From NCBI GenBank assembly GCA_963796285.1, contig CAWCKW010000001.1:72748-136747 (forward strand): a stretch of 64,000 nucleotides of DNA, read 5' to 3'. Origin of the DNA: Nitrospirota bacterium. GTDB taxonomy: Bacteria; Nitrospirota; UBA9217. Shown here piece by piece: positions 5,478-56,806 of the stretch. Position 1 is the first letter of the stretch. The number at the start of each line of letters is the position of its first letter. Made by a program: the position numbers and the translations under genes. Below the pieces are notes generated by a model. The model searched no databases. It was not told the origin of the DNA and was given only the letters and a program-made list of their open reading frames with translations.

Positions 5478-7115
5478 TTTCCGCCTCCCTGATTGGAGGC
5501 AGGAAACGTCAAAATATTCACCACAGAGTTCACAGAGGTTTTTGAATATCTAATAGATTTTATCTCGGCGTTCTCTGTAGTTATTTTATGAAGATTCATT
5601 GCGTTGTTATGATCTGGAATCTGAATCTCTCCGTGTTCTCTGTGGTTAACGAATTGAATGGCATTTAGGAGCGGTTCGACTGTTTTCAGAACAGGCCGCG
5701 GGTAAAGGCCAAGCCAGAGTATCACGAGGACCATTACCGCCATCGAGCCTGTTTCGCGTGAAGAAAGGTCAATAAGCTTCAGACCATCTTGCCTCTTGCC
5801 ATGGAACACGCGCTGGACGATCCAGAGCGAGTAGATCGCGGCCAGAACAAGCCCGCTGGCGGCGAACATGGTGATCACGGGGTGGGTCCGGTATGAACCG
5901 ATCAGCACCATGAACTCGGCAACGAAATTGCCGAAACCCGGCAGGCCGAGTGAGGCAAGGGCAAAGACAAGACCGAAGCCGCCGAGTCGCGGCGCCGCTG
6001 ACCAGAACCCGCCCATGCCTCCCAGCTCGCGGGTATGGACGCGCTCCTGGATCATCCCGACGATGATGAACAGCGCGCCCGTGCTGATGCCGTGGGCCAC
6101 CATCTGCATGGTCGCGCCTGAGAGGGCGATCTGATTCCCGGCGAAGATGCCGATGAGCACAAAGCCCATGTGGCTCACGCTGGTATACGCCACGAGACGC
6201 TTCAAATCGGTTTGGCCAAACGCGAGCAGAGCGCCGTAGATGATACCGATGACGCCCAGCACCAGCATTATCGGTCCAATGGTCGCAACAGCATCGGGGA
6301 AGAGCGGCAGCACGAAGCGCAGAAGTCCATAGGCCCCGGTCTTGAGCAGGAGCCCGGCAAGGACAACGCTTCCTGCTGTCGGTGCCTCGGTGTGGGCATC
6401 AGGCAGCCAGGGATGGAACGGGACGACCGGCAGCTTTACAATGAAACGCAATGACAAACCCGAGCATGATCCAGAACGCTGCCTGGGAAGACAAGGCGAT
6501 ATGGCGCAGCAGCGAGTAATCGAAGGTATAAACGCCCGTGTCCTGGCCATGTATGAAATAGAGTGCAAGGATCGAAAGGAGCATCAGCAGGCCGCCTGCC
6601 TGGGTGAAGATGAAGAACTTGAGCGATGCATAGACGCGGTTCTCGTGCCCCCAGATGTTGATCAGGAAGTACATCGGGATGAGCATCAACTCCCAGAAGA
6701 AGTAGAACAGGAACAGGTCCACGGCCAGAAACACGCCGAGGATCCCCGCGAGGATCCAGAGCAGGTTCATGTGGAAGAACCCAACGCGCTCTCGGATCTC
6801 GGTCCAGGAGCAGATGACGGAGATGATACCGAGAAACAGGGTAAGCGCCACGAGTACGAGGCTCAGGCCGTCCATTGCGAGGTGCAGGCTGATGCCGAGC
6901 TGAGGGATCCACGGTTTGTTTATTTCGGTCAGCCAGGCGCTTTGAGTGAGATCGAGTCGGATGGCGGCGCTCGACCAGAATGATAACAGCAGGACGGCGT
7001 CGAGTGCGAGCGCGGCGAGGGACAGCCACCGGGACAGGGTGTTGTTCCTGTTCCCGAAGAACCATGCCAGCAGTCCGCCGATCAGCGGTATGATGATGAG
7101 CCAGATTAGGATCAT
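5474..7115 (-). CDS. nuoM: NADH-quinone oxidoreductase subunit M (frameshift near 6440)
   Basis: ORF 6399-7115 (DGLS, FWELMLIPMY) plus ORF 5474-6568 (PFHPWLPDAHTEAPTAGS, KRLVAYTSVSH). Confidence 0.95.
5517..5649. repeat. 9-nt-period inverted-repeat element embedded in the nuoM 3' end
   Basis: CACCACAGAGTTCACAGAG versus CTCGGCGTTCTCTGTAG and CTCCGTGTTCTCTGTGGTT. Confidence 0.7.
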
Positions 7116-7489
7116 GTAGTAGCCCCTCCCTTGATGGGAGGGGTTGGGGAGGGTGATTTCTGAGAGCAGGTTCTTAGAATCATTTCCAAAACCCCTTCGA
7201 TTTTTGTAAGTACTTCATGATTCCAGAATCTTAAAACAGAGAACCCTTGTGACATTAGCCAGATATCCCGATGTGAATCAACTGCTTCAGAATGCTGACC
7301 ACCATCAACTTCAACGACTACAGCTTTTTCATAACATACAAAATCCACAATGTAGTTGCCGATTGGTTCTTGTCTCCTGAACTTCAATCCTTCAACTTGC
7401 TTAAAACGCAGGTGCTTCCATAAGAATCTTTCTGCGTCAGTAGCGTTTTTCCGTAGGTTTTTGGCCTTCTTGGTTAGATCAAGCGTCAA
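7112..7489 (-). CDS. DUF559 (Vsr-like PD-(D/E)XK) endonuclease-domain protein
   Basis: LRKNATDAERFLW, KFRRQEPIGNYIVDF, VVEVDGGQH, VLRFWNHEV; probable TTG start at 7489. Confidence 0.92.
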   Translation of the reverse strand: MTLDLTKKAKNLRKNATDAERFLWKHLRFKQVEGLKFRRQEPIGNYIVDFVCYEKAVVVEVDGGQHSEAVDSHRDIWLMSQGFSVLRFWNHEVLTKIEGVLEMILRTCSQKSPSPTPPIKGGATT

Positions 7490-7532
7490 AATGCCTTCCC
7501 TCCCCAACCCCTCCCACTAGGGGAGGGGCTAC
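7119..7532. mobile_element. DUF559 cassette bounded by ~36-bp terminal inverted repeats
   Basis: GTAGCCCCTCCCTTGATGGGAGGGGTTGGGGAGGG (from 7119) is the near-perfect reverse complement of CCCTCCCCAACCCCTCCCACTAGGGGAGGGGCTAC (to 7532). Confidence 0.7.
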
Positions 7533-7536
7533 AGCT

Positions 7537-9428
7537 CTATTGAAGAAGCATCACGATCCCCAAAAACACTACCGCGCCTACGACCATCGCCATCGCGTAC
7601 CACCTGATGTTGCCGGTCTGGGTCTTACTCAGTGTTGTGCTCAGCACACGATTCAATGACGCGATGCCGGCATACCCGGAATCGATGAGATCATGCCTGC
7701 TGATGCGCGTGAGCCACATAAATGGCCGTATAAAAAGACGGTCATACATCGCGTCGAAGTCCCATCCAGCGAGCCAGAATTTTCTGATCGACTCGAACGT
7801 GCGTACACGGGCGATCCGATCAGCGTATTGAGGACCATCGGACAAAGAACAGGTAGGCGATGAAGATGCCTGAAAGGGAAACGATCGACGCGATGATCTG
7901 GAGCATGCCTTCACCGACGACGGGTTCAATGGCCTTTTCGCTGAACACCGTCCGCAGGAAGTTCGAGAACAGGGGCTGGTTCCCGAGCGTCTCCGGCAGC
8001 TCCACAAACCCTCCGATGATCGAGAGTACGGCAAGGATGATGAGCGGTGCGAGCATCTTTGCCCCCGGCTTATGGCTTACCGGTGTTTTTAATTCTCCAA
8101 AGAAGGTGAGGAAAACCATGCGGAAGGTGTAGATCGACGTAATGAACGCACCGAAGAGTCCGGCAGCCCACAAGGCCATGCTACCTGAACCGGATGACCA
8201 GGCTTTCCACAGGATCAGGTCCTTGCTGTAGAATCCCGCTGTCACGAGCGGAAGGGCGGACAAGGAAGCTGAACCGATCAGAAATGTCCAGAATACGGCC
8301 GGAAGTTTGTTCTTCAAACCTCCCATCTTGAACATGTCCTGCTCGTGGTGCTGGGCAAGGATCACTGCGCCAGCGCCGAGGAACAGGAGCGCCTTGAAGA
8401 ACGCGTGTGTCATGAGGTGGAAGATGGCTGCGGACCAGGCGCCCACGCCAAGGGCCAGGAACATGTATCCGAGCTGGCTGATGGTGGAGTAGGCGAGGAC
8501 GCGCTTGATGTCTTTTTGCGCCATCGCGCTGAGGCCCGCGACCAGAAGCGTGGCTGCTCCGAGGACAGCGATCACCGATTGCACAACAGGCGCGAGCTCG
8601 AACAGGACATGGGTCCGTGCAATAAGGTACACGCCGGCGGTGACCATGGTTGCTGCGTGGATCAGGGCACTGACAGGCGTGGGACCTGCCATGGCGTCGG
8701 GCAGCCATACCTGGAAGGGTAGCTGGGCTGATTTTCCGAGAGCCCCGCCAAGCAGAAGGGCGGCGGCAAGAACCGCGGTTTCAGAACCAACAGACCATTG
8801 TTTCGGGGCGAGGGTCATCAGCTCCTGAATATTCAGGGTGCCGAGGTTCGTGAACAGGAGGAAAAGACCCAATGCCATGGCAGTGTCGCCGACGCGTGTC
8901 ACGATGAAGGCCTTTCTCGCGGCACGGCCGTTTGTTGGGTCCGAATACCAGAAGCCGATCAGGAGATAGCTGCAAAGCCCGACACCTTCCCACCCGAGGT
9001 ACAGGAGCAGCAGGTTGTCGGCGAGCACGAGGAGAAGCATCGAGCCCACGAAGAGGTTCATATACGCGAAGAAGCGGCTATAGCCCTCGTCTTCGATCAT
9101 GTATTCCGTAGAATAAAGGTGGATAACCAATCCCACAATGGTGACGATCAGTATCATGACCAGCGAAAGGGCATCGAGAGAGAAGGAGATCGGTTGCGAA
9201 TATCCCTCGAACTCCATCCACGTCCAGAGCGTCTGGGTGATGGCGTGACCCTGCGGTGGATTGCCGATGAACTCGAATCGCCATGAGAACGGCAAGGAGC
9301 GCGGACATTCCCACCGAGCCTGCGCCTACGAAGGCGATAGTCGTCCTCGAAAGACGGCGGCCTATCAGCGCCAGGACAAGGAATCCGGCAAAAGGCAGAG
9401 CGGGTATGAGGAAGAGAAATTCGTTCAT
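7537..9428 (-). CDS. nuoL: NADH-quinone oxidoreductase subunit L (frameshifts near 9278 and 7830)
   Basis: WEGVGLCSYLLIGFW, GKSAQLPFQVWLPDAMAGPTPVSALIHAATMV and HAFFKALLFL, spread over three ORF fragments. Confidence 0.95.
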
Positions 9429-9437
9429 AGTCAGGTT

Positions 9438-9528
9438 GTAGCCTCCCCCTTTAATGGGGGAGGTTGGTGGGGGTAAGTTCCGACTTTTCACCCTCCCCTC
9501 AGTCCCCTCCCATCAAGGGAGGGGATGC
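9438..9528. repeat. Empty copy of the DUF559-cassette inverted repeats
   Basis: GTAGCCTCCCCCTTTAATGGGGGAGGTTGGTGGGGGT, ~12-nt spacer, TCACCCTCCCCTCAGTCCCCTCCCATCAAGGGAGGGG. Confidence 0.75.
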
Positions 9529-9530
9529 TT

Positions 9531-9842
9531 CTACCCTTTCATCCTGCTTACAACATCGGTGTCCAGAGTCTTAAAATTATGGTATAGCTGGAGCACGAGC
9601 GCGAGCCCTACGGAAACTTCTGCTGCAGCCATGGTCAGAATGAAAATGAACATGACTTGTCCATCCACCTGTCCCCATCGCGCGCCGGCGACCACGAAGG
9701 CCAGGCCCACCGCGTTCAGCATGATCTCGACGCTCATGAGCATGAACACGATGTTCCTGCGCACGAGTACCCCGATGAGCCCGAGCACGAAGAGTATCGC
9801 AGCGAGGATGAGGCCGTGTTCCATGGGGATGTTTTGAATCAT
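9531..9842 (-). CDS. nuoK: NADH-quinone oxidoreductase subunit K
   Basis: [26 protein letters not shown]. Confidence 0.97.
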
Positions 9843-9851
9843 GATGCTCCT

Positions 9852-10346
9852 TTAATGCTTGTGCGGCCTGCCGAGATGGTAGGCGCCGACCAGTCCTGCC
9901 AGAAGCAGCATGGACGCCAGTTCCACACCCAGTACGTACGGACCAAGCAATGCAATGCCTACCTGTTTGGGTGTGATTTCAGTAATAGCAGAGATTCTCG
10001 CGTGTTCCATGGTGAACAGATAGATCAATTCCGATGCAAGGAACAGGCAGAGAATCGCCGGTCCTTTCCATATTCCCGGAGTAAGCAGCAGCGCTTCCTC
10101 TTTCGCGTGCGCTCCGCCGAGGTTCAGCATCATGATCACGAAGATGAAGAGCACCATGATGGCCCCGGCATAGATGATGACCTCGAGGGCGGCGACAAAA
10201 GGAGCGCCGAGGATAAAGAAAATCATCGCCACGGCCAGAAGCGAAACGATAAGGTACAGGAGCGCGTGCACCGTGTTCGTCCTGGTGATGACCAGGAGGG
10301 TCGACAGGACCGCAACGAGAGCTGCAATATAAAATAATATTGTCAT
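9852..10346 (-). CDS. nuoJ: NADH-quinone oxidoreductase subunit J
   Basis: HALLYL, IIYAGAIMVLFIFVIMML, ELASMLLL. Confidence 0.96.
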   Translation of the reverse strand: MTILFYIAALVAVLSTLLVITRTNTVHALLYLIVSLLAVAMIFFILGAPFVAALEVIIYAGAIMVLFIFVIMMLNLGGAHAKEEALLLTPGIWKGPAILCLFLASELIYLFTMEHARISAITEITPKQVGIALLGPYVLGVELASMLLLAGLVGAYHLGRPHKH

Positions 10347-10393
10347 AGTGAAGTCATTCTTTACGACCTTCGCGCTTGGCGAGAAACGATTGC

Positions 10394-10909
10394 TCAGGGC
10401 ATCAGGCTTTTCGTGTCCACAGGCATATCTTCATTCTCCGCCTCACCTTTGTCCTTCCCCTTGATGGCCAACCCTGCGACCCGGTAGAAGTTATAATCAG
10501 GATACTTACCCGGTCCGCTGATGAGCAGGTCTTCCTTTTCATACACAAGGTTCTGCCGCACGTACTCACCCATCTCGAAATCCGTCGTGAGCTGGATCGC
10601 GTAGGTCGGGCATGCCTCCTCGCAGTATCCGCAGAAGATACAGCGCGAGAAATTGATCCTGAAGAATTCGGGGTACCGTCTTCCGTACGCATCCTCGGTG
10701 GCCTGAAGCGCGATACAGCCTACCGGGCATGCGACCGCGCAGAGGTTGCATGCCACGCATCGTTCCTCACCATCGGGGTCGCGGGAGAGGATGATCCGTC
10801 CGCGCCACCGGGGAGGGATGGTGGGCCTCTCCTCGGGGTATTGGATCGTCGCCCGCTTCCGGAACATGGTCATGAAGACCGTGTAGATCGATTTAAGAAT
10901 ACTGAACAT
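10394..10909 (-). CDS. nuoI: NADH-quinone oxidoreductase subunit I
   Basis: Two 4Fe-4S motifs, [12 protein letters not shown] and [12 protein letters not shown]; TIQYPEE. Confidence 0.97.
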
Positions 10910-10917
10910 AAATCCTT

Positions 10918-11375
10918 TTTGACAGGAGAACAGGATAAAATCTGATAATGCTACTTCAATCGCCTGAGCTTGCGCTTGATTTCGACTTTATCTTCACCAA
11001 AGTTAATGAGAAGTCCGATAGGTTTCCCTGTCGCAACGAGATAATTCACTAATTGAACTTCGTGTACCTTGACAAGCTGCTTTATGGCCTTCAGTTCGAG
11101 AATAACCGTATCGTTTACAATAAGGTCTGCAATAAAATCGCCGACGAGTTCGCCGTCATAATATACTTGTATGGTTTTTGAGTCTCGACCTTTAACGCTG
11201 CTTTTCGTAATTCAATAACCAAGCATTTCTCATAAACGCTTTCAAGAAATCCTGCACCCATTTTATTATAAACGCGATATGCACAGGCAATGATTTTTTC
11301 AGTCAGTTCTTTGTATTCCAATTGGCCTCCGACAGATTCTCGCTCTTATCCTGTCAATCCTGTTATCCTGTCAAA
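10918..11375. mobile_element. GxxExxY cassette bounded by 9-nt-period inverted repeats
   Basis: TTTGACAGGAGAACAGGATAA (10918-10938) versus TTATCCTGTCAATCCTGTTATCCTGTCAAA (11346-11375). Confidence 0.65.
10951..11321 (-). CDS. GxxExxY protein (PD-(D/E)XK nuclease superfamily), frameshift near 11172
   Basis: N-half [10 protein letters not shown]; C-half translated by hand as [29 protein letters not shown]...QLVNYL..GLLINFG...KRKLRRLK*. Confidence 0.9.
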
Positions 11376-11379
11376 GAAC

Positions 11380-12336
11380 TTAACCAGTTTTAATTAGAAT
11401 AATCCATCCCGTCACCACGAGATTCACCAGCGACAGCGGCAGCATCACCTTCCACCCGAAGGACATCAATTGATCATACCTCGGCCGGGGGAGCGATGCC
11501 CGGAGCAGGATGAAGAAACAGATGAACACGAATGTCTTTAAGGAAAACCAGATCACGGGCGGCAGCAGCGGTCCCAGCCATCCGCCAAAGAACAGCGTTA
11601 CCGTGAGCGCCGAGATGAGCGTGATCGCCAGATACTCGCCGATAAAGAACATGCCGAACTTCATTCCCGAATATTCGGAATGGAACCCGGCGACAAGCTC
11701 GCTCTCGGCCTCGGGAAGGTCAAAGGGCAGGCGGTGCGTCTCCGCAATACCGGCGATGAAGAAAACGACGAACCCGATGAACTGCGGTAGGATGAACCAT
11801 CCGCCTTGCTGCGCCTCAACGATCTCGCGCAGGTTGAAGGACCCCGCGAGCATTACCACGCCCATGAGCGACAGGCCCATGAAGACCTCGTAGCTCAGCA
11901 TCTGCGCGACCGAGCGCAGGCCGCCGAGGAGCGAATACTTGCTGTTCGATGCCCAGCCCGCCAGGGCCACGCTGTAAACGCCCATGGACGACATGGCGAG
12001 GAAGAACAGCAGCCCGATGTTCAGGTCAACGACCTCGATGCCCGGCGCAAAGGGGATGACGGTAAAGGACATGAGCACGACTACCATGATCACCGCCGGT
12101 GCGATAATGAACACGGCCTTGTCCGCAAAAGGCGGGACCCAGTCTTCCTTCGCGAATATCTTGATCGAGTCCGCCAGCACCTGCAAGAGGCCGAACGGCC
12201 CCACCCGGTTCGGGCCATACCGGTCCTGCCACAGCGCCAGGAGCCTGCGCTCGAGCCAGATCAGCATACTGCCGATGGTAAGCACCACGAAGAGGATGCT
12301 GAAGAGAATGATGAGATGTAATATCGTTTCAGTCAT
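11380..12336 (-). CDS. nuoH: NADH-quinone oxidoreductase subunit H
   Basis: [44 protein letters not shown]. Confidence 0.97.
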
Positions 12337-12348
12337 GGCTTATCTGAT

Positions 12349-14862
12349 CTATTCTGAGTGGATCAATTTTGCACGTTCAACGATAGCCGGTGATTGTGCG
12401 CTCAATTCTTCTGATCCGAAGATGTTATAAACAGGTATCTCCGCCTGTTTACCCTTCGTATGATTTAGAGCTTCCGTCGTGAGATTGAAATACACAGGCT
12501 GAACTGTTGTTCCCGCCCCAATCAGGCTTTCCCCTATATCACCGCCTTTGAGGGGCCCGCCCACGTCCTGCTGGAACTTGTTCAAGGCCTGGACGGAATT
12601 CCAGCCCGGCGACCAGTAGCGGGTGATCAGCGACGGGGGAGGCTGGTCCTGATATCCCTCCATGGAAAAAGCAAGGGGAGAATCAGCGTCATTCGGCGGC
12701 TTTGGTTCATGCAAGCGGATGTTGGCGATCATGGCTGTGCGCCCGCTGTAGCGGTGCGGCTGGCGAGGGATCTTCTGCCCTTGTATCCTCCAATCAGCGG
12801 ATGGCGCACTACTCACGGCAGGTCCGAATACCGGCATTGCAGCTGACATATCTTTCGCGATGTCATCGAAAGATTGCCATGTTGTCGATTTTCCGATCGT
12901 GGCCAGTATATCACGGATCCACTTCCAGCTTTCCTGAATGTCATGGTTCGGTTTGAATACCTGATAGAACCGCTGTGCCCGGCCTTCATTGTTCATCAAA
13001 GTTCCCTGGGCTTCCGCAAAAGTAGCAGCGGGCAGGGCGACATCCGCTTTTGATGATGTCGGATTGACCAGGGAGTCAAGCACGATGATGTTCTTTGCAT
13101 GATCCAATACTTCATCGACGATCTTTGCATCAGCCCTGCGAAAAAGGTCATTTTCAAGGATGATCATCGTATCGGCCTGACCGTCCCGGATGGATTTGAA
13201 TGCCTCATCCAGGTTCTTACCCTTCATGAGAGCGAGTCCCATGGTATTACATTCCAGGACCGTGTAACAGAGGCCGGCCTGCTTCCCAATCGAGCAAAGG
13301 GCCCATGCAATATTGGCGGCTGCCTCAATGATCGCCTGGCTCATGCATCCGGTGCCGCTCACGATAACTGGACGCTTTGCATTCTTGAGCGCCGCTGCTA
13401 TTTCCTTTGCTAGCGCTCTGACATCGGGTGATTGGTCTGGAACCGCGGGAACATGCTGATCCAATTCATTTGCCACCGCAATACCGAGCCCTGCGATGTC
13501 GGCGGCCGAAGCCTGGTAGGTTTTTGTTGCAACATCATCCAACTTCGACTTTGAACCGGACGCTATGTAGATCGGTGTTTCTGAATTCTGTCCCGCGTTC
13601 CTGACCGCATTATCGTCCCAGCCGGGTATCTTCATAGCTGCCGCTGTCTCGCGTTGCTTGTTCTGAGCTGACTGACGGATCGAGAGCGCGAGCATCGGGG
13701 CTGTGTTGGTCACATCTTCACCGAGAACAAAAACCGCATCCGCAGACTCGATCTCATGCAGGGAAGGCGTGCGCGCAGGACCTTTTTGAAGAATGTCTAC
13801 GATAGACCCCATGAGCGTGTGTTCCTGGCCGGACAGGCCTGAGCAGAAGTTGTCAGGACCGACAAGGGTGCGAAGGGCAAAGTTCGATTCAAGCGACGCA
13901 CGGGGCGATCCGATGCCGATCATGACTTTGTTTTGGGACAGCATCTTCTTGATCCTGCTGATCGCTGCGGTCTTGTCCGCAGGTGCCTGGCCTTCCTGTG
14001 CAGTTGCTTTAAGCAGCGCTTTTCTGATTCTGCGCCCGCTGTTCACGAATTCATATCCAAACCTGCCGCGGTCGCAGAGGAAATAACCGTTGATCTCATA
14101 ATTGTAGCGGTTCAATATTCTGCGGAGGGTGCCGTACCGTTCACCGGGAATCGTGTTGCAGCCGATGCCGCAATGAACGCAGATCGACGGCGCGGTCTGA
14201 AGGTCCCATTTTCGAGTAAAGTGCTGTTTGAGCGTTTTATCCGTAAAAACCCCGGTGGGGCAGACTTCGACCAGGTTCCCGCTGAACACGTTTTCGAGCG
14301 CGCCCTCTTCATGCCTGCCGAAATAGACGTTATCATGGGACGCGAATACAGAAAAGTCGCGGCCACCCGCATAATTACGATAGAACCTGACACAGCGATA
14401 GCATTGGATGCACCGGTTCATTTCATGATTGATGAAAGGGCCGAGGTCCTGGTTCCGTTGAGTGCGTTTTTTGAACCGCGTCCGCCGGTAAGTATGGCCG
14501 GTCATGACCGTCATGTCCTGAAGGTGACATTCGCCGCCCTCGTCGCAGACCGGACAATCATGGGGATGGTTCAACATGAGCCATTCGATCACGCTCGACC
14601 TGAAGGCCCGAGCATCGGCATCGTCAATAGATAATCGCATTCCCTCGGCAACCGGTGTCATGCAGGACATGGTGATCCTGCCGCGCGTATCCTTGTCATC
14701 CTTGAACAGTTTGACAGCGCATTGACGGCATGCGCCCACAGAGTGCAGGGCAGGGTGCCAGCAGAAGTAGGGGAGATCGAACCCCAGCGAGAGGCAGGCC
14801 TGGAGGAGGTTCTGGCCTTCTTTGACTTGATGGGGTTTATTGTCTATATAGATCGTAAACAT
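12349..14862 (-). CDS. nuoG: NADH-quinone oxidoreductase subunit G
   Basis: PYFCWH..GACRQC, HPHDCPVCDEGGEC, RCIQCYRC, CVHCGIGC motifs. Confidence 0.97.
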   Translation of the reverse strand: MFTIYIDNKPHQVKEGQNLLQACLSLGFDLPYFCWHPALHSVGACRQCAVKLFKDDKDTRGRITMSCMTPVAEGMRLSIDDADARAFRSSVIEWLMLNHPHDCPVCDEGGECHLQDMTVMTGHTYRRTRFKKRTQRNQDLGPFINHEMNRCIQCYRCVRFYRNYAGGRDFSVFASHDNVYFGRHEEGALENVFSGNLVEVCPTGVFTDKTLKQHFTRKWDLQTAPSICVHCGIGCNTIPGERYGTLRRILNRYNYEINGYFLCDRGRFGYEFVNSGRRIRKALLKATAQEGQAPADKTAAISRIKKMLSQNKVMIGIGSPRASLESNFALRTLVGPDNFCSGLSGQEHTLMGSIVDILQKGPARTPSLHEIESADAVFVLGEDVTNTAPMLALSIRQSAQNKQRETAAAMKIPGWDDNAVRNAGQNSETPIYIASGSKSKLDDVATKTYQASAADIAGLGIAVANELDQHVPAVPDQSPDVRALAKEIAAALKNAKRPVIVSGTGCMSQAIIEAAANIAWALCSIGKQAGLCYTVLECNTMGLALMKGKNLDEAFKSIRDGQADTMIILENDLFRRADAKIVDEVLDHAKNIIVLDSLVNPTSSKADVALPAATFAEAQGTLMNNEGRAQRFYQVFKPNHDIQESWKWIRDILATIGKSTTWQSFDDIAKDMSAAMPVFGPAVSSAPSADWRIQGQKIPRQPHRYSGRTAMIANIRLHEPKPPNDADSPLAFSMEGYQDQPPPSLITRYWSPGWNSVQALNKFQQDVGGPLKGGDIGESLIGAGTTVQPVYFNLTTEALNHTKGKQAEIPVYNIFGSEELSAQSPAIVERAKLIHSE

Positions 14863-14884
14863 ATTTTCTCTGATTGCTGATCAT

Positions 14885-16156
14885 CTAGTGCCATGGGCAT
14901 TTCTTATCCTGTATGTGTTTCGCAAAGTCTTCGCGGAAGTACTTGAGCGCGCTTTGGAGCGGCTCAACGGCGCCCGGCGCAAGAGCGCAGTAGGTATTGC
15001 CGGGACCGAGCAGCCTGCATTGCTGCGCCAGCAGATCGATGTCGCCTGGCTCTCCCCCTCCGGTCTCGATCGCATGGAGAATCTTCTCTATCCACGGGAG
15101 GCCTTCGCGGCAGGGCGTGCACCAGCCGCAGGATTCCCGTCTGAAAAAGACTTCAAGGTTGTGGACAAACCCGACAGGGCAGGTCTTGTCGTCGAGCACG
15201 ATCATGGTGCCGGTGCCCATGCGGCTGCCGGCTTTCATGACCGAGTCGAAGTCCATCTTGATATCCAGATGTTCTGCAACCAGAAAGTCGGTTGAAGCAC
15301 CTCCGGGGATCAAGCCGCGGAACTGATAGCCGTCCAGCATGCCGCCCGCGTGCTCCTCAAGCAGCTCCCGGATGGTCATGCCCATGGGCAGTTCCCATGC
15401 CCCGGGCTTCCTTACCCTGCCGCTGACACCGTACAACTTGGTCCCGCCGTCAGGGCTTGAGCTCAAACCCTTGAACCAATCAGGTCCGTTGTTCACGATA
15501 TGAGGTATGTTCGCGATAGTTTCCGCATTGTTCACGATCGTGGGTCTGCCGAAGAGGCCGCAGACCTGGGGGAAGGGCGGCTTCGCTCTCGGCGTGGCAC
15601 GTTTCCCTTCAAGGGCGTTCAAAAGCGCGGTCTCCTCGCCGCAGATATAGCGGCCCGCACTCGCATGGATGCGGAGGTCGAGATTGAAGCCAGAGCCGAG
15701 GATATTCGTGCCGAGATAGTTGTGCTCATAAGCTTCGGCAATGGCCGCTTCAAGCCGATGCGCCGCCAGTTTGTATGCCCAGCGGATGAAGATGAATGCC
15801 TGCTGCGCTTCAATGGCATAGGCGCTGGTGATCACACCCTCGATGATCTGGTGGGGGTCGCCTTCAAGCAACATCCGGTCCTTGAATGTTCCCGGCTCCA
15901 TCTCGTCGGCATTCACGACCAGATATTTAGGGCGCGGCGCGTCTTTTCCCATGGGAACGAAGCTCCACTTTGCGCCCGTAGGAAAACCAGCTCCTCCGCG
16001 GCCGCGCAGGTTCGATGCCTTGACGATGTTCTGGACATCCTGCGGAGACATCGCAAGCGCTTTGCGCACAGACTGGTAGCCGCCGGTTTTCTCGTAGTCT
16101 TTCAGAGAAAGCGGCTCCTGGCCAGCGCGTATGTTTTTTGTGAGTGGTCGTTCCAT
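14885..16156 (-). CDS. nuoF: NADH-quinone oxidoreductase subunit F
   Basis: LRGRGGAGFPTG, NADEMEPGTFKDR, YICGEETAL, ESCGWCTPCREG. Confidence 0.97.
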   Translation of the reverse strand: MERPLTKNIRAGQEPLSLKDYEKTGGYQSVRKALAMSPQDVQNIVKASNLRGRGGAGFPTGAKWSFVPMGKDAPRPKYLVVNADEMEPGTFKDRMLLEGDPHQIIEGVITSAYAIEAQQAFIFIRWAYKLAAHRLEAAIAEAYEHNYLGTNILGSGFNLDLRIHASAGRYICGEETALLNALEGKRATPRAKPPFPQVCGLFGRPTIVNNAETIANIPHIVNNGPDWFKGLSSSPDGGTKLYGVSGRVRKPGAWELPMGMTIRELLEEHAGGMLDGYQFRGLIPGGASTDFLVAEHLDIKMDFDSVMKAGSRMGTGTMIVLDDKTCPVGFVHNLEVFFRRESCGWCTPCREGLPWIEKILHAIETGGGEPGDIDLLAQQCRLLGPGNTYCALAPGAVEPLQSALKYFREDFAKHIQDKKCPWH

Positions 16157-16170
16157 GGTACTTTATTTGA

Positions 16171-16635
16171 CTATGGGTAATTCTCCAGGATCTTTTCCAT
16201 CATCTCCGGGGTCACGGGCCCGTACAAGTCCTCACCAACCATCATGGCCGGGGCGCGGTCGCAGGCGCCGAGGCAGGAGATGGGGAGGAGTGTGAAACGC
16301 TCGTCCTCTGTCGTTTCTCCGAATCGAATGCCGTGGGTCGTCTTCAGAAGTTGCAACAGCGGATTGTAGCCCATGACCCAGCAACTGATGCTGTCACATA
16401 TCAGGATCACGTGCCTGCCCACTGGCTTCCGAAAAATAAAACTGTAAAATGTCGCAACTGCATCCAACTCATCGGGCGTCATCTCGAGCATTCGCGCAAC
16501 TTCCTTGAGGCTCTCATCCGATACCCAGCCTTGGTGGCGCTGTACGATGTTCAGCGCTTCAATTGAAGCTGACTGCTTCGTCACGCAGTGTGCCAGTTCA
16601 ACGTTGATTTTCTGTATTTCGATTTCGCTCAGCAT
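16171..16635 (-). CDS. nuoE: NADH-quinone oxidoreductase subunit E
   Basis: VATFY, CDSISC, CLGACDRAP (2Fe-2S ligands). Confidence 0.96.
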   Translation of the reverse strand: MLSEIEIQKINVELAHCVTKQSASIEALNIVQRHQGWVSDESLKEVARMLEMTPDELDAVATFYSFIFRKPVGRHVILICDSISCWVMGYNPLLQLLKTTHGIRFGETTEDERFTLLPISCLGACDRAPAMMVGEDLYGPVTPEMMEKILENYP

Positions 16636-16641
16636 TTCAAT

Positions 16642-17034
16642 TTACCTCCTCTCCCCGAGGGGAGAGGATAGAGGTGAGGGGGTGTGTTGTCTTTGTTCTA
16701 TTGCTCTCAAAATTGCTTCGTATATTCCTTCTTTGTTTAGCAATATATCCCTATTGTTGAATCTGATAATATGTATGCCCCGCGCTGACAGCGCCTTTTC
16801 TCTCTCTGCGTCATGCGTCGCGCCCTTATTTTCATAATGCTGGCCGCCGTCTGCTTCAATGGCAATTTGCAATTCAGGTGCATAGAAGTCCAGGATGTAT
16901 TTGTCGATAGAAAACTGTCGTCTGAATTTAATACGAGCCAATCGTCGATCGCGTAAGAGCGACCAAAGATTTCTTTCCGCGTCAGTTTGATTTCTGCGAA
17001 GTTCTCTGCTTCTCGGTATATTGGGTCGTTTCAA
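16642..17034 (-). CDS. DUF559 endonuclease-domain protein (second copy)
   Basis: LRRNQTDAERNLW, KFRRQ..YILDF, IEADGGQH, IRFNN. Confidence 0.92.
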   Translation of the reverse strand: MKRPNIPRSRELRRNQTDAERNLWSLLRDRRLARIKFRRQFSIDKYILDFYAPELQIAIEADGGQHYENKGATHDAEREKALSARGIHIIRFNNRDILLNKEGIYEAILRAIEQRQHTPSPLSSPLGERR

Positions 17035-17076
17035 CTTCCCCCCTCACCCCAGCCCTCTCCCCACAGGGAGAGGGAG
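16645..17076. mobile_element. Second DUF559 cassette bounded by ~38-bp inverted repeats
   Basis: CCTCCTCTCCCCGAGGGGAGAGGATAGAGGTGAGGGGG versus CCCCCTCACCCCAGCCCTCTCCCCACAGGGAGAGGGAG. Confidence 0.7.
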
Positions 17077-17084
17077 AATTCTAA

Positions 17085-18834
17085 TCATCTATCCAAATCC
17101 GCCAGAATAAAATCAATGCTCCCGATGATCGCCACAAGGTCGGCGATCATCAGCCCCTTGCTGATCTTCGGCACCATCTGCATATGGGCGAACGAAGGGG
17201 TCCTGATGCGGGTACGGTAGGACATGGTATTGCCGTCGCTGATGAGATAGTATCCGTTGTTCCCCTTGGTCGCCTCGATGCCCATGAACGCCTCGCCGGC
17301 AGGTATCACCGGTCCCCAACTGACGCCGAGGAAGTGGTTGATGAGCGTCTCGATGTCATGCATGGTGCGTTCCTTGCGGGGCGGCGTCGTGAGCGGATGG
17401 TCTGATTTGTATCCGCCTTCAGGCATGTTGTTCACGCACTGTTCGATAATGCGCAGGCTCTGTCGTATTTCCTCGACGCGCACGACCCCGCGGTCGTAGC
17501 AGTCGCCATGGGTTGCCGTGGGGATATCGAACTCGAAGTTCTCATAGCCGGAATACGGCCGCTTCTTTCTAAAGTCCCAATCGAATCCGCAGGCGCGGAG
17601 ACCGGGACCGGTCACTCCCCAGTCGATGGCCTCGTCCTTGGTATAGATGCCGACACCCTTGGTGCGGGCCTTGAATATCCTGTTCCGCATCACGATCGTG
17701 TCGTATTCCTTGAGCCGGGGAGGCAGGTATTTGAGAAAGTCGCGCACGAGCCTGTCCCATCCCTTCGGCAGGTCCATGGCCACGCCGCCGATCCGGAACC
17801 ACGCAGGATGCATGCGTCCGCCGCAGATCGCCTCGACGATATCGAAGATACGCTCGCGGTCCGTGAACATATAGAACACCGGCGACAGCGCGCCCACGTC
17901 CTGGGCAAAGGTGCCGTACCAGACAAGATGGCTCGCGATGCGGAAGAGCTCGGCCATCATCACGCGGATGGTCTTTGCCCGGTCAGGCACCTCGATGCCC
18001 GCGAGCTTTTCGACCGCAAGGCAGTAAGCCATATTGTTCATAACGCCGCCAAGGTAGTCGACGCGGTCGGTGTAGGGGATATAGGTGTGCCAGGACTGGC
18101 GTTCGGCCATCTTTTCAGCGCCGCGGTGGTGATAGCCGATGTCGAGCACGGCGTCGGCGATCTCCTCGCCATCGAGCTGTAGGACGATGCGTAACAGTCC
18201 ATGGGTGCCGGGGTGCTGTGGCCCGAGGTTCAGGAACATGAAGTCCGAGTCTTCAGAAACGCGTTTCAATCCCCAATCTTCGGGTCTGAACTTGAGCGCG
18301 GCCTGCTCTTTTTCTTCTTTTTCATCAGACAGCTCGAACGGGCCCATCTCGGTGGCCCGCGCAGGGTGGTCCTTGCGAAGGGGATGGCCGTTCCAGGTCG
18401 GAGGCATCAGGATCCTTTTCAAGTGCGGGTGGCCGTCGAACGTTATCCCGAAGAGGTCCCAAACCTCGCGCTCGTACCAATTGGCTGACTGCCAGAGGTT
18501 GGTGATCGTGGGGAATGACGGCGGATTATTCCGTGAGCGGCACCTTGATGCGGATGTCCTCATTCCGGTCAAAGGAAAGGAGATGATATACGACCGTGAA
18601 TTCACTCGCCGGCTGGTCCTGGCGATGATTGCGAACGCGCTCATCGATGGCCGTAAGGTCGTAGAGCATCTTATAGGGACGGTCGACACCTGTCTTAAGA
18701 TGTCTCAAAACATCGTTGACCTTGTCGTGTGACACCCAGAGTGTGGGGATCTCATCGCGCGTGGTCTGTTCGGCGAGAATGGAGTCGCCGAAGGTTGTTT
18801 TGAGGTCAGTGATGATGGGGTTGTTTGAGGGCAT
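17085..18834 (-). CDS. nuoC: Fused NADH-quinone oxidoreductase subunit C/D (frameshift near 18526)
   Basis: ORF 18526-18834 ([10 protein letters not shown]) joins [42 protein letters not shown]. Confidence 0.95.
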
Positions 18835-18840
18835 AGGGTG

Positions 18841-19090
18841 AATGCAAATGTCAAATTACAAAGCTCAGAGTTTAAAGGAATGTCAAAACGTCAATGTTTA
18901 ATTTGATTATTTTGAGTCTGTATTTAATATCCTTTTTCGTCATGCCGGACTTGATCCGGCATCCAGCGGTTTTATGAAAAGACTGGATTCCTGCCGCCGC
19001 AGGAATGACGAGCTTGAGAGAAACAGCAATGAAAATGCAAACTATATTTTGTAGTTTGATTTGTACTTTAGATTTTGAAATCTGAGCTTA
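18841..19090. repeat. 7-nt-period inverted-repeat element with a nested REP-like doublet (18938-19010)
   Basis: AATGCAA-ATGTCAA-ATTACAA arm and TTTGATT-TGTACTT-TAGATTT-TGAAAT arm; inside, CGTCATGCCGGACTTGATCCGGCATCCAG...CTGGATTCCTGCCGCCGCAGGAATGACG. Confidence 0.7.
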
Positions 19091-19095
19091 TTCCG

Positions 19096-19710
19096 CTACA
19101 CTTCATCGGGCGATCTCAGGACCGTGGCCTTTTGCCGCTCTTCCCGTTTCAGGTCCCGCATGCACGGTTTCTCCGGCCGCACGATGCCCTGCGGCCCGGC
19201 GATCCAGCTCAAGGGCCTGCGTTCTTTGCCGACCTGCTCACGCAGCATCAGCAGACCTTCCATAAAGGCCTCGGGCCGGGGAGGACAACCGGGCACGTAC
19301 ACGTCAACGGGCATGAACTTGTCCACGCCCTGGACCACGCTGTAGATGTCGTACATGCCGCCGGAGTTGGCGCAGGAACCCATGGAGATGACCCATCGCG
19401 GCGCCATCATCTGTTCATAGAGCCGCTTGATGATCGGCGCCACCTTGATGAACACCGTACCGGCAACGATCATCATGTCCGCCTCTCGCGGCGTTCCGCG
19501 GATCACCTCCGCGCCGAAGCGCGCAATATCGTACTTGCTCGTCAGACTCGTGGCCATTTCAACATAGCAGCAGGAGAGGCCGAAGTTGAACGGCCAGATG
19601 GAGTTCTTCCTCCCCCAGGCGAGCATGTCCTGCATCGTCGTGAGGATCACGCTTTGGCGCATCGCGTCTTCCGCGGAACCGTGGTCAGGTCTGGTTAAAG
19701 AATAGTTCAT
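19096..19710 (-). CDS. nuoB: NADH-quinone oxidoreductase subunit B
   Basis: [30 protein letters not shown]. Confidence 0.97.
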
Positions 19711-19722
19711 GAAGCCTTTCGG

Positions 19723-19840
19723 AAAGTTCAAATGTCAAAATTCAAAGTTTAAATCAATCCTTAACCAAAAAAATTCAAATTTCACGCTTGTTGTTTTTTT
19801 TATTTCGAACGTTGATCTTTGAACTTTGAAATTGATTTTG
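19723..19840. repeat. 7-nt-period inverted-repeat element overlapping the nuoA 3' end
   Basis: AAGTTCA-AATGTCA-AAATTCA-AAGTTTA arm versus TTGATCT-TTGAACT-TTGAAAT-TGATTT arm. Confidence 0.7.
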
Positions 19841-20219
19841 CAAATGTTCCCCACTCCAGTGCGCCGATCCGCCAGAGATAGACGAGCGTGGCAGTCAGGA
19901 CACCGATGAAGACCAGCATCTCCCCATAGCCCAACCATCCATTCTCCCTGATGGACACTGCCCAGGCAAAGATGAACACGGCCTCGAGATCGAAGATGAC
20001 GAAGAACATGGCGATGAGGTAGAATTTGATGTCAAAGCGCACCCGTGCCGTGCCGGTGGACACGATCCCCGACTCATAGGGCTCATCGGTCTGTTTTTCC
20101 CGGTGCCGTTCGCCGAGGAGCGAGGAGAGGACGATGATGATCGATACGAGGACGATGACTGCGAGGAAATACACGCCGAGCGGCCAGAGCGCGGTTGTGT
20201 CTGCTGTTGGTTGCGTCAT
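19800..20219 (-). CDS. nuoA: NADH-quinone oxidoreductase subunit A
   Basis: PYESG, KFYLIAMFFVIFDLEA, GALEW. Confidence 0.96.
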   Translation of the reverse strand: MTQPTADTTALWPLGVYFLAVIVLVSIIIVLSSLLGERHREKQTDEPYESGIVSTGTARVRFDIKFYLIAMFFVIFDLEAVFIFAWAVSIRENGWLGYGEMLVFIGVLTATLVYLWRIGALEWGTFAKSISKFKDQRSK

Positions 20220-20355
20220 GTGCAAAGAATAGCACAGAGGGGGATAAAGTCAAGCAGGAGATGACTGCAAACAGGTGACACTGCTCGACGCTGGAATATA
20301 GGATGCGCATGCGGGGCAAGTCATACGTGGTGCTTCATTTGTTATCAGCGGGGAA

Positions 20356-23005: not shown

Positions 23006-23013
23006 ATTGTTGA

Positions 23014-23044
23014 AAGGCCCGGAAAACCTCCGGGCCTTTTTTTT
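23014..23044 (+). terminator. Rho-independent terminator
   Basis: AAGGCCCGGA-AAACC-TCCGGGCCTT followed by a T run. Confidence 0.85.
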
Positions 23045-26528: not shown

Positions 26529-28412
<1,884 letters not shown>

Positions 28413-28430
28413 TTTTTTTTTGAGGTTCTC

Positions 28431-33888: not shown

Positions 33889-33923
33889 GATCAACTGACG
33901 TAAATATCCAACGGAGGATACCG

Positions 33924-40658: not shown

Positions 40659-40674
40659 CGGCTCAAACAAAAAG

Positions 40675-40813
40675 AATTTTACCGCGAAGGCGCCAAGAGT
40701 GCGAAGGAAGGCAAAAGATCCTTGCTGGTTTAAGACAGTGTATTAACGATTTTCTTCGCGTCCTTTGCGCCTTCGCGGTAAAATTATTTTGGTTCCGGCC
40801 TGACCCGGTTAGG
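40675..40813. repeat. 9-mer inverted-repeat element followed by a GGTTCCGG..GGTTAGG repeat
   Basis: AATTTTACCGCGAAGGCGCCAAGAGTGCGAAG versus CTTCGCGTCCTTTGCGCCTTCGCGGTAAAATT; then TTGGTTCCGGCCTGACCCGGTTAGG. Confidence 0.8.
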
Positions 40814-41636: not shown

Positions 41637-41772
41637 TTTTACCGCGAAGGCGCGAAGAAATCGAATGCAGGTAGAAGATTTTCGGGATTGAAATTAGACA
41701 TTGAAAGATTTTCTTCGCGACCGTTGCGCCTTCGCGGTTAAAAGATGTTTGCTCCGGTTCATCCGGATCAGG
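41637..41772. repeat. 9-mer inverted-repeat element followed by a GCTCCGG..GGATCAGG repeat
   Basis: TTTTACCGCGAAGGCGCGAAG versus CTTCGCGACCGTTGCGCCTTCGCGGTTAAAA; then TTGCTCCGGTTCATCCGGATCAGG. Confidence 0.8.
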
Positions 41773-49694: not shown

Positions 49695-49729
49695 GGCCCC
49701 CGGAAGCAGAGTTTCCGGGGGCCTTTTTT
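49695..49729 (+). terminator. Rho-independent terminator
   Basis: GGCCCCCGGAAGC-AGA-GTTTCCGGGGGCC followed by a T run. Confidence 0.85.
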
Positions 49730-51585: not shown

Positions 51586-51981
51586 ATGAAGCGGATAGTT
51601 CTGATGGGCATGGTAATGGTTGGCGTGCTGTGCGCTGGACCACTGGCGGCCCTTGACTACAACGGGCCGAGGATCGAGATCAAGGAATTGCGCTACGATT
51701 TAGGCAAGGTTGCCCAGGATACGCAGGTCTCGCAAATATTCGAGGTCAAGAACGTTGGCAGCGAGCAATTAATCATAGAAAAAGTCCAGACTTCCTGAGG
51801 CTGTACCGCAGCGGTGATCAGTTCCGATCACCTGGAGCCGGGGGCAGTAGGACGCGTGCAGGCGACAGTGAACACGGGCAGCAACAATGGGCGTATTTCG
51901 AAACACATAAGCATTTATTCCAATGACCGCACCCAGCCGGTACTTTCGGTGGAAGTGACCATGGATGTGGTGAAAAAGTAG
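51586..51981 (+). CDS. Exported DUF1573-like protein, probable selenoprotein (TGA 51796-51798, S-U-G-C-T)
   Basis: Signal peptide; YDLGKV, FEVKNVG..LIIEKVQTS-U-GCT; frame stays open through KHISIYSND to TAG 51981; GGTGATC-AGTTCC-GATCACC hairpin. Confidence 0.8.
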
Positions 51982-53428: not shown

Positions 53429-53437
53429 AGATACATT

Positions 53438-53535
53438 TTTACCACGGAGGCACGGAGACACGGAGAAGAGCAGTTACGCGATCTGTGTCTATTGTCTAAC
53501 GCCTTTCTCTGTGACTCCGTGTCTCTGTGGTGAAA
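53438..53535. repeat. 9-nt-period inverted-repeat element (empty)
   Basis: TTTACCACGGAGGCACGGAGACACGGAGAA versus TTCTCTGTGACTCCGTGTCTCTGTGGTGAAA. Confidence 0.85.
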
Positions 53536-55135: not shown

Positions 55136-55155
55136 CATTCCGCTTTGATGGAATG

Positions 55156-56574
<1,419 letters not shown>

Positions 56575-56584
56575 GTCTTTTGTG

Positions 56585-56614
56585 TTGACAAAGACAACGG
56601 TTCTTTGTTATGAT
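56585..56614 (+). promoter_or_regulatory. Putative sigma70 promoter of the tRNA pair
   Basis: TTGACA-18 nt-TATGAT. Confidence 0.6.
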
Positions 56615-56642
56615 ACGCAGCTTTAAAGAATACCGCGAGAGC

Positions 56643-56718
56643 GGGCCGGTAGCTCAGTTGGTAGAGCACCGCCCTTTTAAGGCGGGTGTCCTGGGTTCGA
56701 GTCCCAGCCGGCTCACCA
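56643..56718 (+). tRNA. tRNA-Lys(TTT)
   Basis: Cloverleaf; CCGCC-CTTTTAA-GGCGG anticodon arm; CCA end. Confidence 0.97.
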
Positions 56719-56730
56719 GTTACCTTTAGT

Positions 56731-56806
56731 AGTGGAAATTGCAAAGTGAAAGGTACTTTCTGTCTGAAAATTTGCAATTTTAAATTTCCAATTTCCAATT
56801 TTCAAT
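56731..56806. repeat. 7-nt-period inverted-repeat element between the tRNAs
   Basis: AGTGGAA-ATTGCAA-AGTGAAA versus AATTTGC-AATTTTA-AATTTCC-AATTTCC-AATTTTC. Confidence 0.8.

Follow-up and report, generated by a model that had tools for sequence, protein, structure and literature searches.

Many gene junctions in the window analysed here, a 64,000-nt stretch of contig CAWCKW010000001.1 from a Nitrospirota bacterium (positions 72,748 to 136,747; G000:C1:72748-136747 in our coordinates, from a host assembly of 3.58 Mb in 13 contigs), are occupied by short inverted-repeat elements, some of which carry a small gene of their own. We use the word cassette for a pair of inverted arms around either one small gene (the loaded form) or a short spacer (the gene-less form). 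It is well supported that each of four arm types is specifically associated with one family of small proteins, in this genome as well as in others. Arms composed of a GC hairpin and a G-run accompany DUF559 genes, arrays of 8-9-nt words accompany GxxExxY genes, arrays of 7-8-nt words accompany genes for the four-helix-bundle '23S IVS' protein (IVS, intervening sequence), and GTCATTCC...GGAATCCAG hairpins accompany GIY-YIG genes. A tie between arm family and passenger family had been suggested by a sequence-only reading of the window, and it holds in the whole genome, in a sample of the phylum, in metagenome contigs and in many phyla.

Association of arm types with passenger families

In the host genome, hairpin-plus-G-run arms are present at all four DUF559 hits (three distinct genes) and arms of 9-nt words at all three GxxExxY genes (a full-length copy is at C12:1321466-1321813), while arrays of 7-8-nt words lie on at least one side of at least five of the six four-helix-bundle hits to PF05635. 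A GIY-YIG gene on contig C10 is enclosed by GTCATTCC-type hairpins, and a second small GIY-YIG gene, on contig C6, stands without such arms. The two DUF559 lineages found in this one genome differ in arm subtype, and the subtype tracks the gene in relatives. Contig C9 duplicates the window copy, C9:3741-4355 being an exact repeat of the nuoCD-DUF559-nuoE junction, and C8:4023-4637 holds this junction in a diverged form with a stop within DUF559. At 5% contamination, the assembly seems to include contigs that are redundant or derive from a second strain.

The same pairings were scored in 150 other genomes of the phylum at the best 30 loci per family, two loci being removed for short flanks. For each locus the upstream flank was aligned to the reverse complement of the downstream flank, and 164 windows shifted by 1 kb served as a control (median score 18, 95th percentile 25; the single high value, 54, is a second cassette). 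An inverted-repeat score above 25 was obtained at 110 of the 118 loci, distributed among the families as follows:

GxxExxY: 30 of 30 loci above 25
Four-helix-bundle: 27 of 29 loci above 25
DUF559: 28 of 29 loci above 25
GIY-YIG: 25 of 30 loci above 25

The design of the arms also follows the gene. Core words in the arms of the GxxExxY loci are 8 nt apart in 28 and 9 nt apart in 17 of 58 intervals, and those of the four-helix-bundle loci 7 nt apart in 37 and 8 nt apart in 17 of 65 intervals (spacing was measured by core-word distance; autocorrelation called 16 of the 30 GxxExxY loci aperiodic, as their words alternate between 8 and 9 nt). Both arms contain a hairpin of their own, with at least eight matched pairs, at 24 of 28 DUF559 loci, compared with none of 30 GxxExxY loci and one of 27 four-helix-bundle loci. 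The separation of arm types is nevertheless not absolute, because three four-helix-bundle loci carry 8-nt GGCACAGA-type words that resemble those of GxxExxY.

Two sets of loci from outside this sample agree with these pairings. Among metagenome GxxExxY loci with both flanks, arms are found at 65 of 75, and 100 of 134 intervals have the 8-9-nt spacing. DUF559 loci from many phyla, gathered with an alignment of nine closer sequences, have arms in 64 of 77 cases (one further locus was masked) and hairpins in both arms of 60; they belong to Nitrospirota, Thermodesulfobacteriota, Alpha-, Beta- and Gammaproteobacteria, Chloroflexota, Patescibacteria, Planctomycetota, Acidobacteriota and others. About ten metagenome GxxExxY loci, including L121 and L110, show a CTTTGCG strand upstream with a CGCAAAG strand downstream, or a complete gene-less element in each flank; they are nested or abutting elements, not one simple cassette.

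The family assignments of the passengers in the window are clear for both nuclease types. The two DUF559 genes belong to PF04480, a family with a Vsr-like endonuclease fold (139.4 and 114.5 bits; cut-off 20.6), and DUF559 matches PDB entry 3HRL, an 'endonuclease-like protein', with E 1.3e-29. Eighteen columns are invariant among 25 related DUF559 sequences, with catalytic-type residues among the invariant positions. The GxxExxY gene, of the PD-(D/E)XK nuclease type, matches TIGR04256 in two pieces (88.2 and 55 bits, cut-off 35; profile positions 1-50 and 28-115) and contains the name-giving motif, translated as GFLESVY; a sequence search gave no related solved structure for this protein. For PF05635, the four-helix-bundle family, a relationship to Avd, a protein of diversity-generating retroelements, has been described.

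Inverted-arm elements in the window

Inverted arms of these families form 17 elements at 16 window junctions, and three of the elements enclose a small gene. About four further simple hairpins (23013-23039, 29210-29234, 37048-37079 and 49695-49723) resemble ordinary terminator-type stems; together with them, the 'about 20' junctions of the sequence-only reading prove a slightly generous but fair count. Each element occupies an intergenic position or a gene end, with protein-coding or tRNA genes as neighbours. By design, four consist of a GC hairpin and a G-run (two loaded and two gene-less, the latter at 9442-9524 and 35102-35186), seven of 8-9-nt words (one loaded) and five of roughly 7-nt words, and one is a doublet of GTCATGCC/GGAATGAC-type hairpins nested in the nuoB-nuoCD junction. 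The distinction of at least four arm families, made in the sequence-only reading, holds, with the GTCATTCC...GGAATCCAG doublet as the fourth, and is borne out by the genome and shuffle counts given below.

The three passengers, two DUF559 genes and one GxxExxY gene, are additional small genes within a complete minus-strand nuo operon (4050-20225) and all have its orientation, as first described; the operon and the three genes are confirmed by Pfam and NCBIfam scans. The arms around them are 19-42 nt long and 79-95% complementary. A family-profile scan of the 67 window ORFs (open reading frames) gave no match to transposase or integrase families, and filled and empty nuoL-nuoM junctions compared across relatives show no target duplication, in agreement with what had been read from the window. 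The operon ends, passengers and elements are:

4050-5477, minus strand: nuoN (Pfam/NCBIfam scan)
5517-5649, arms 5517-5537/5629-5649: gene-less 8-9-nt-word element, nuoM-nuoN; CACAGAG-type words; nuoM frame reads through; z 4.8
7112-7507, minus strand: DUF559 gene between nuoL and nuoM (Pfam scan)
7119-7532, arms 7119-7153/7498-7532, minus strand: loaded DUF559 cassette; arms 35 nt, 91% complementary, each a GC hairpin plus G-run
9442-9524, arms 9442-9473/9491-9524 (C1 82189-82220/82238-82271): gene-less hairpin-plus-G-run doublet, nuoK-nuoL
10918-11375, arms 10918-10936/11357-11375, minus strand: loaded GxxExxY cassette, nuoH-nuoI; arms 19 nt, 95% complementary; ACAGGAT-type words
10969-11321, minus strand: GxxExxY gene between nuoH and nuoI, split by an apparent frameshift (NCBIfam scan)
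16642-17034, minus strand: DUF559 gene between nuoCD and nuoE (Pfam scan)
16648-17073, arms 16648-16689/17032-17073, minus strand: loaded DUF559 cassette, nuoCD-nuoE; arms 42 nt, 79% complementary
18861-19089, outer 16-nt arms 18861-18876/19074-19089: composite gene-less element, nuoB-nuoCD
18938-19010, hairpins 18938-18966/18983-19010: nested GTCATGCC/GGAATGAC-type doublet inside 18861-19089
19723-19827: gene-less 7-nt-word arms of GAACTTT type, nuoA-nuoB; weak pair, 74% complementary
19800-20225, minus strand: nuoA (Pfam/NCBIfam scan)
25572-25648: gene-less 8-9-nt-word arms, CGCAGAG/CACTGAG words, DUF190-crcB; z 3.9
28305-28419: gene-less 7-nt-word arms, CAGGAGN words, 3' end of aspS
33778-33890: gene-less 8-9-nt-word arms, CGCAGAG words, between a fadB-like and a thiolase gene; z 4.7
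35102-35186: gene-less hairpin-plus-G-run doublet, arms 13 nt apart, between thiolase and acyl-CoA dehydrogenase genes; z 19
40666-40794: gene-less 8-9-nt-word arms, CGCGAAGG words; 44 nt, 84% complementary; z 29.6
41637-41742: gene-less 8-9-nt-word arms, subfamily of 40666-40794, at the next junction, between ETF genes; z 7.1
53437-53535: gene-less 8-nt-word arms, CACGGAG words, between an aminotransferase gene and serA; z 23.6
55155-55241: 7-nt-word arrays in opposite orientation, serA-purA; weak by alignment score
56733-56806: 7-nt-word arms, AATTTCC words, between tRNA genes 56643-56715 and 56822-56896

The stop of the DUF559 gene at 7112-7507 overlaps the nuoM start (ATGA). On contig C10, the GIY-YIG cassette has at its 3' end a sequence nearly identical to the nested doublet at 18938-19010. 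The element at 56733-56806 is flanked by two tRNA genes, and such elements therefore occupy tRNA spacers too. By a strict gapped score, 7 of 38 gaps of at least 40 nt reach 24 or above, six of these with z of at least 3; the weaker periodic pairs (such as 18861-19089, 19723-19827 and 55155-55241) are taken as probable elements on their family resemblance, not on their own statistics.

The window elements belong to a much larger set. The whole genome contains 31 hairpin-plus-G-run arms, 189 triple CRCNRAG arrays and 19 GTCATTCC...GGAATCCAG hairpins, compared with none of each in the shuffled genome, and contig C13 has 60 inverted pairs with arms of at least 16 nt versus 16 after shuffling. Tandem arrays number 541 at period 7, 275 at period 8, 138 at period 10 and 82 at period 11; pairing based on Tandem Repeats Finder (TRF) gives too few for the 8-9-nt family. 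A chance origin of the arms is ruled out by the shuffles and the shifted-window controls, and an assembly artefact as the source of the cassettes by their recurrence in relatives and in independent runs. The 32 gene-less CGCAAAG-type elements that were found group into subfamilies with conserved spacers and common outer ends, and therefore appear to multiply as units.

Two further kinds of locus were seen among the word arrays. A second element of about 60 nt, starting GTAGCCTGCTGTTGCC, is inserted in the CGCAAAG word arms of at least seven gene-less elements, in both orientations (for example C12:539962-540138, C12:1816060-1816222 and C13:431076-431239), giving a repeat inside a repeat. Moreover, an rpe-like gene (C3:67113-67871) and a hisH-like gene (C3:178332-179012) have word arrays of a single type in both adjacent junctions; these loci mimic a loaded cassette without being one.

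Co-occurrence of arms and genes across genomes

Arms were counted by fixed patterns in a set of 151 genomes, and arm abundance tracks the matching gene, as the association proposed from the window would have it. At least 10 hits of GGGAGRGG-N2-6-GGKGRGGG occur in 42 genomes, of which 33 possess DUF559, compared with 23 of the remaining 109. For CRCRRAG-N-CRCRRAG, 28 genomes have at least 20 hits; GxxExxY is found in 22 of them and in 7 of the other 123. Within the family to which the window belongs, six GxxExxY-negative genomes show 2-9 array hits and 21 positive genomes 18-281, and this contrast is seen within two genera.

The surplus of arms over genes can be read in another way, namely that the arms are autonomous structure-forming host repeats (triplex, quadruplex or REP-like) and the small nucleases separate homing-type genes that use palindromes as safe landing sites. 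Arms exceed genes 10-100 fold, the G-run arms of this genome standing at 31 to 3 DUF559 genes and its triple arrays at 189 to 3 GxxExxY genes; consecutive junctions around ordinary genes, rpe and hisH among them, also hold word arrays; and certain complete genomes are arm-rich yet gene-free. In addition, the triplex motif is reported to be unlinked to mobile elements in E. coli (Holder et al., PMC4666352), and heptamer arrays have been treated as structural repeats (Rehm et al., PMC4692102). Landing sites of this kind would, however, leave it unclear why one arm design accompanies one gene family across distant phyla, why arrays fall to background level within two genera where GxxExxY is not found, and why the DUF559 arm subtypes of one genome differ by lineage and track the gene in relatives. 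We therefore regard this explanation as rather unlikely, though the strongest of the rival ones.

Loaded, gene-less and absent alleles

Junction content varies among close relatives, and loaded, gene-less and absent alleles are found at the same nuo junctions. In the nuo operons of 16 relatives the junction lengths are -4 (stop-start contact), 40-270 nt or 330-460 nt. The DUF559 cassette between nuoL and nuoM is shared by the window and three more genomes of its genus, one copy being degraded. At the same place the stop and start touch directly in L001 and L003, one of which is of the same genus as the window; a single hairpin, in one case matching the 3' arm, is present in L004, L008 and L011; and arms of a different type are present in L009 and L015. 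DUF559 at nuoCD-nuoE is also found in one relative, and four relatives carry GxxExxY at nuoF-nuoG, a junction that measures 22 nt in the window. Among the operons compared, GxxExxY at nuoH-nuoI is specific for the window.

Public metagenome contigs with at least 90% likeness to the window provide further forms. At nuoH-nuoI the arms are retained and the 404 nt with the gene give way to 22 nt (run X1) or 8 nt (run X7); X1 contains the loaded form as well. The 22-nt filler extends the palindrome of the arms, and it fits interior exchange between family members better than simple deletion. In runs X5 and X20 (an RNA library, with contigs of relatives) the entire nuoH-nuoI cassette is skipped, and the skip in X20 is a DNA allele because a DNA run has the same joint. 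At nuoK-nuoL, contigs of three runs from three studies skip 9432-9528/9530 and have 13-15 other nt instead, while an X1 contig has 32 other nt in place of 5492-5652 at nuoM-nuoN and an X1 contig skips 18840-19095 at nuoB-nuoCD. The joints 7528>19221 and 17061>7109/7116 have short sides and join two repeat arms; they resemble graph chimeras and, like the depth figures, were given no weight.

The sequence-only reading had named two outcomes that would count against it: a lack of specific association between arm and passenger families across genomes, and junction content fixed among close relatives. The association is specific and the junction content is variable, so neither outcome was found.

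Constraint, fit to the operon and RNA folding

The arms of four orthologous nuoL-nuoM cassettes are identical at 33-35 of 36 and 37-40 of 40 positions (92-100%), with interiors 63-73% identical and the neighbouring nuoL/nuoM ends 65-78%. For the DUF559 gene of this junction, synonymous divergence (dS) is saturated (1.9-2.5 or undefined) and dN/dS is 0.09-0.10. These values indicate that the gene is under selection, that the arms are constrained as sequence and not just as a pair, and that the copy is old at its site.

Constraint of this strength raises the question of whether the small proteins serve the host, perhaps in repair or defence, with the arms as their own regulatory sites or transcript stabilisers and the gene-less copies as decay products. 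The low dN/dS, the persistence of the cassette at one nuo junction through saturated synonymous divergence, and the invariant catalytic-type residues of the 25 DUF559 sequences would all suit such a role. Yet the gene-less multi-copy subfamilies with conserved spacers go beyond what in-place decay yields, each junction is patchily occupied in close relatives, and several paralogues per genome are located at unrelated housekeeping junctions; host benefit is consequently an improbable account of the cassettes.

The passengers fit closely into their operons. In 18 of 28 DUF559 loci the frame runs through the whole 3' arm, and 12 of these 18 stop in ATGA on the next start; the stop lies ahead of the 3' arm in 24 of 30 GxxExxY and 16 of 27 four-helix-bundle loci. 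Flanking genes are co-oriented on 132 of 158 scored sides (48/55, 42/50 and 42/53).

Such an arrangement could also act mainly through RNA, much like an rRNA intervening sequence: the arms would pair in the transcript, RNase III would cut the stem, the passenger message would be released or silenced, and the cistrons would be separated. In folding predictions an arm-arm stem closes both cassettes folded (z -4.9 and -3.0), none of 100 shuffles folding as well, and loop-out of the passenger from the RNA is possible according to these models. The mostly neighbour-oriented cassettes are compatible with this role, as is the Coxiella IVS described by Warrier et al. 2016 (PMC4990558), an RNase III substrate of the same layout, with a 28-bp terminal stem and tandem heptamers ahead of an S23p ORF. 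The arm mismatches point the other way, G:U being no commoner than A:C in sense RNA (20 vs 27, 26 vs 23 and 52 vs 52), which gives no sign that selection preserves sense-RNA pairing. An RNA-level role moreover leaves the DNA-level gain and loss and the family-specific arm designs unexplained, and we think it has little chance of being the principal one.

A proposed model of small selfish cassettes

On balance we lean, with modest confidence, to the interpretation that the elements of the window are a sample of small selfish cassettes spread over the whole genome, in which the protein would act on its own arms and the elements would undergo homing-like exchange and MITE-like spread (MITE, miniature inverted-repeat transposable element). 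The encoded protein may recognise its own arm type as DNA. The interior would be gained, lost and exchanged at the DNA level, by break-and-repair or recombination with the arms as handles, and homing-like conversion may take place between loaded and gene-less copies. Gene-less copies would multiply as whole units, like miniature inverted-repeat elements. Persistence in operon junctions could be achieved through low harm, the cassettes fitting exactly between stop and start codon and being mostly neighbour-oriented; the DUF559 type would add a ribosome-binding-like G-run, its frame crossing the 3' arm to end on the next ATG.

Several observations weigh against this model of selfish cassettes. 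A clear inverted repeat is missing at 8 of the 118 phylum loci and at 10-13 loci of each outside set. Nine genomes have at least 10 G-run arm hits without DUF559 (E <= 1e-8), four of them at least 95% complete; twelve DUF559-positive genomes have at most two G-run arm hits; and six CRCRRAG-rich genomes are without GxxExxY, among them G038, which has similar 8-nt words around four-helix-bundle genes. Because exceptions occur in both directions, complete genomes included, the tie between arm and gene is strong but not obligatory, and the Fisher p of 1e-10 overstates the co-occurrence since related genomes are not independent. The nuoL-nuoM cassette acts as a stably inherited gene at its site and not as an active mobile element, because dS is saturated at this one locus. 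No target-site duplication was found, the filled and empty nuoL-nuoM junctions included. Contigs at 90% likeness or above may come from other species, and some of the 'alleles' are possibly old differences. A biochemical link between protein and arm is absent from the literature as searched, and arm recognition is here a proposal drawn from sequence. Finally, a single catalytic mechanism cannot cover all four families, because the four-helix-bundle family is without a nuclease fold.

A broader and more tentative proposal, which we hold less probable than the selfish cassettes themselves, is that four unrelated families of tiny proteins each recognise their own hairpin or word-array DNA and use it as address and vehicle, the gene homing into dispersed inverted repeats and aiding their multiplication, so as to form a transposase-free 'hairpin-homing' class. 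If true, this class would explain the TM/PIT repeats (intrastrand triplex motifs, see below), the heptamer and 8-9-mer arrays, the GTCATTCC-type hairpins and the ORF-bearing rRNA intervening sequences, and it would give a purpose to the very large DUF559, GxxExxY and four-helix-bundle families. In any case, the one-to-one pairing of these very common protein families with abundant intergenic repeats merges separate questions on the two into one, namely whether the protein binds or cuts its own arms. A standard laboratory strain would suit such a test, since E. coli K-12 carries a single DUF559 gene, ycjD, together with 23 published triplex motifs. There are practical consequences as well: frames through the arms lengthen or split gene calls, and cassettes seed assembly chimeras and produce strain-level differences within core operons such as nuo.

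Other features of the window

The Pfam and NCBIfam scans covered 67 and 21 ORFs of the window, respectively. Several genes appear frameshifted (nuoC, nuoL, nuoM, pcm at 23954-24567, aspS at 26529-28368 and the GxxExxY gene). Contigs from other public runs have one base fewer at 6443 and 9279, exactly the positions of the nuoM and nuoL shifts, and these two are therefore probably assembly errors or private changes rather than biology; the remaining split genes (nuoC, pcm, aspS and GxxExxY) are likely to have the same explanation. Single-base indel differences from public-run contigs are also listed at 16161, 7534 and 18925. An Rfam scan of the window found three tRNAs and nothing else. At 57304-62756, three neighbouring genes are made of a 378-nt tandem repeat (8.6 copies) with DUF7933 domains; a cohesin-like gene comes after them, and GC climbs to 0.61-0.66. 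A short ORF at 51586-51798 weakly matches OS_HP2, a (seleno)protein family, and a selD-like gene is located at 29233-30192.

Comparison with known systems

REP sequences and REPINs with their RAYT genes, and MITEs, are short, palindromic intergenic elements in inverted doublets, of which few accompany a gene from the corresponding family and many stand without a gene. The cassettes are similar in both respects, forming inverted doublets of which few copies hold a gene and many do not. The enclosed genes, unlike those of REPIN/RAYT systems, are not Y1/HUH transposases. The two PF01797 (Y1_Tnp) genes of this genome, on contigs C13 and C12, have unrelated hairpins of their own and none of the four arm types, and RAYT-driven REPINs were rejected on this ground. 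As regards MITEs, the elements here have inverted ends and form subfamilies of many copies that keep their spacers; no transposase-bearing parent was seen, nor a duplication at the filled and empty nuoL-nuoM junctions.

Free-standing homing endonuclease genes offer a second parallel, since the GIY-YIG and Vsr-like/PD-(D/E)XK folds include homing enzymes (a group I intron homing endonuclease is listed in the Vsr/DUF559 group by Steczkiewicz et al. 2012, PMC3424549) and such genes have presence/absence alleles at a fixed site. The cassettes differ in that no intron or intein is involved, the proposed target is a dispersed repeat and not one gene site, and one of the families is non-nuclease.

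The DUF559 arms share the design of the intrastrand triplex motif (TM/PIT), which Holder et al. 2015 (PMC4666352) described in E. coli and in over 260 further bacterial genomes, with its consensus CCCTCNCCC-N3-6-GGGNGAGGG-N3-GGGNGAGGG: a C-tract, a 3-6-nt loop, a complementary G-tract, a 3-nt loop and a second G-tract. That motif is intergenic, frequently occurs in inverted tandem pairs and is tied there to local rearrangement or instability. A relaxed form of the consensus recovers 31 arms in our genome as candidates for triplex formation, including all eight that flank the four DUF559 hits. The main text of PMC4666352 does not mention DUF559, ycjD or endonuclease, whereas here the motif brackets DUF559 in 64 of 77 loci. 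In E. coli K-12, ycjD sits between sapF and fabI (L267 8030-8840), with a degenerate hairpin motif at its 3' end; next come a second copy of part of that end and, about 170 nt downstream, a full triplex motif. From its layout this locus looks like a decayed cassette. Searched as DNA, the DUF559 cassette had no match in E. coli genomes.

The 7-nt arms correspond to the heptamer repeats of Xanthomonas and Nostoc, which are tandem words, often in inverted pairs, over-represented between co-oriented ORFs and transcribed, with 70 and 75 convergent inverted pairs in two Xanthomonas genomes (Rehm et al. 2015, PMC4692102). They were read there as quadruplex-forming DNA, and that paper ties them to no gene family and contains no mention of S23 or four-helix-bundle genes. 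A close layout is that of the ORF-bearing 23S rRNA IVS of Coxiella and Leptospira (S23p/PF05635), in which a small ORF lies within terminal inverted repeats that form a long stem (PMC4990558). Heptamers beside the ORF, a sporadic, transfer-like distribution and the lack of a transposase are shared with it, and here too a small ORF lies between terminal arms, which by prediction pair into a long closing stem. The cassettes differ in lying between protein-coding genes and not in a 23S rRNA helix, in the window passengers being DUF559 and GxxExxY nucleases and not S23p, and in their many gene-less copies. DUF559 proteins are also enriched among predicted inversion targets (odds ratio 14.3; Milman et al. 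2023), which fits genes flanked by inverted repeats.

The sequence-only reading had considered the cassettes the best candidate in the window for an undescribed system, and this view stands in part. Hairpin arms (as TM/PIT), inverted heptamer arrays and ORF-bearing IVS with heptamers and a stem are each already published; in the literature searched, which did not cover subscription journals, nothing was found that links these arms to these genes or reports a series of loaded and gene-less forms at operon junctions. The pairing of arm with gene and the series of junction alleles are accordingly what appears to be new. With each arm type accompanied by its own tiny-gene family in many bacteria, the cassettes look like selfish DNA of a kind that is widespread but for the most part undescribed, and that combines features of the IVS with those of MITEs.

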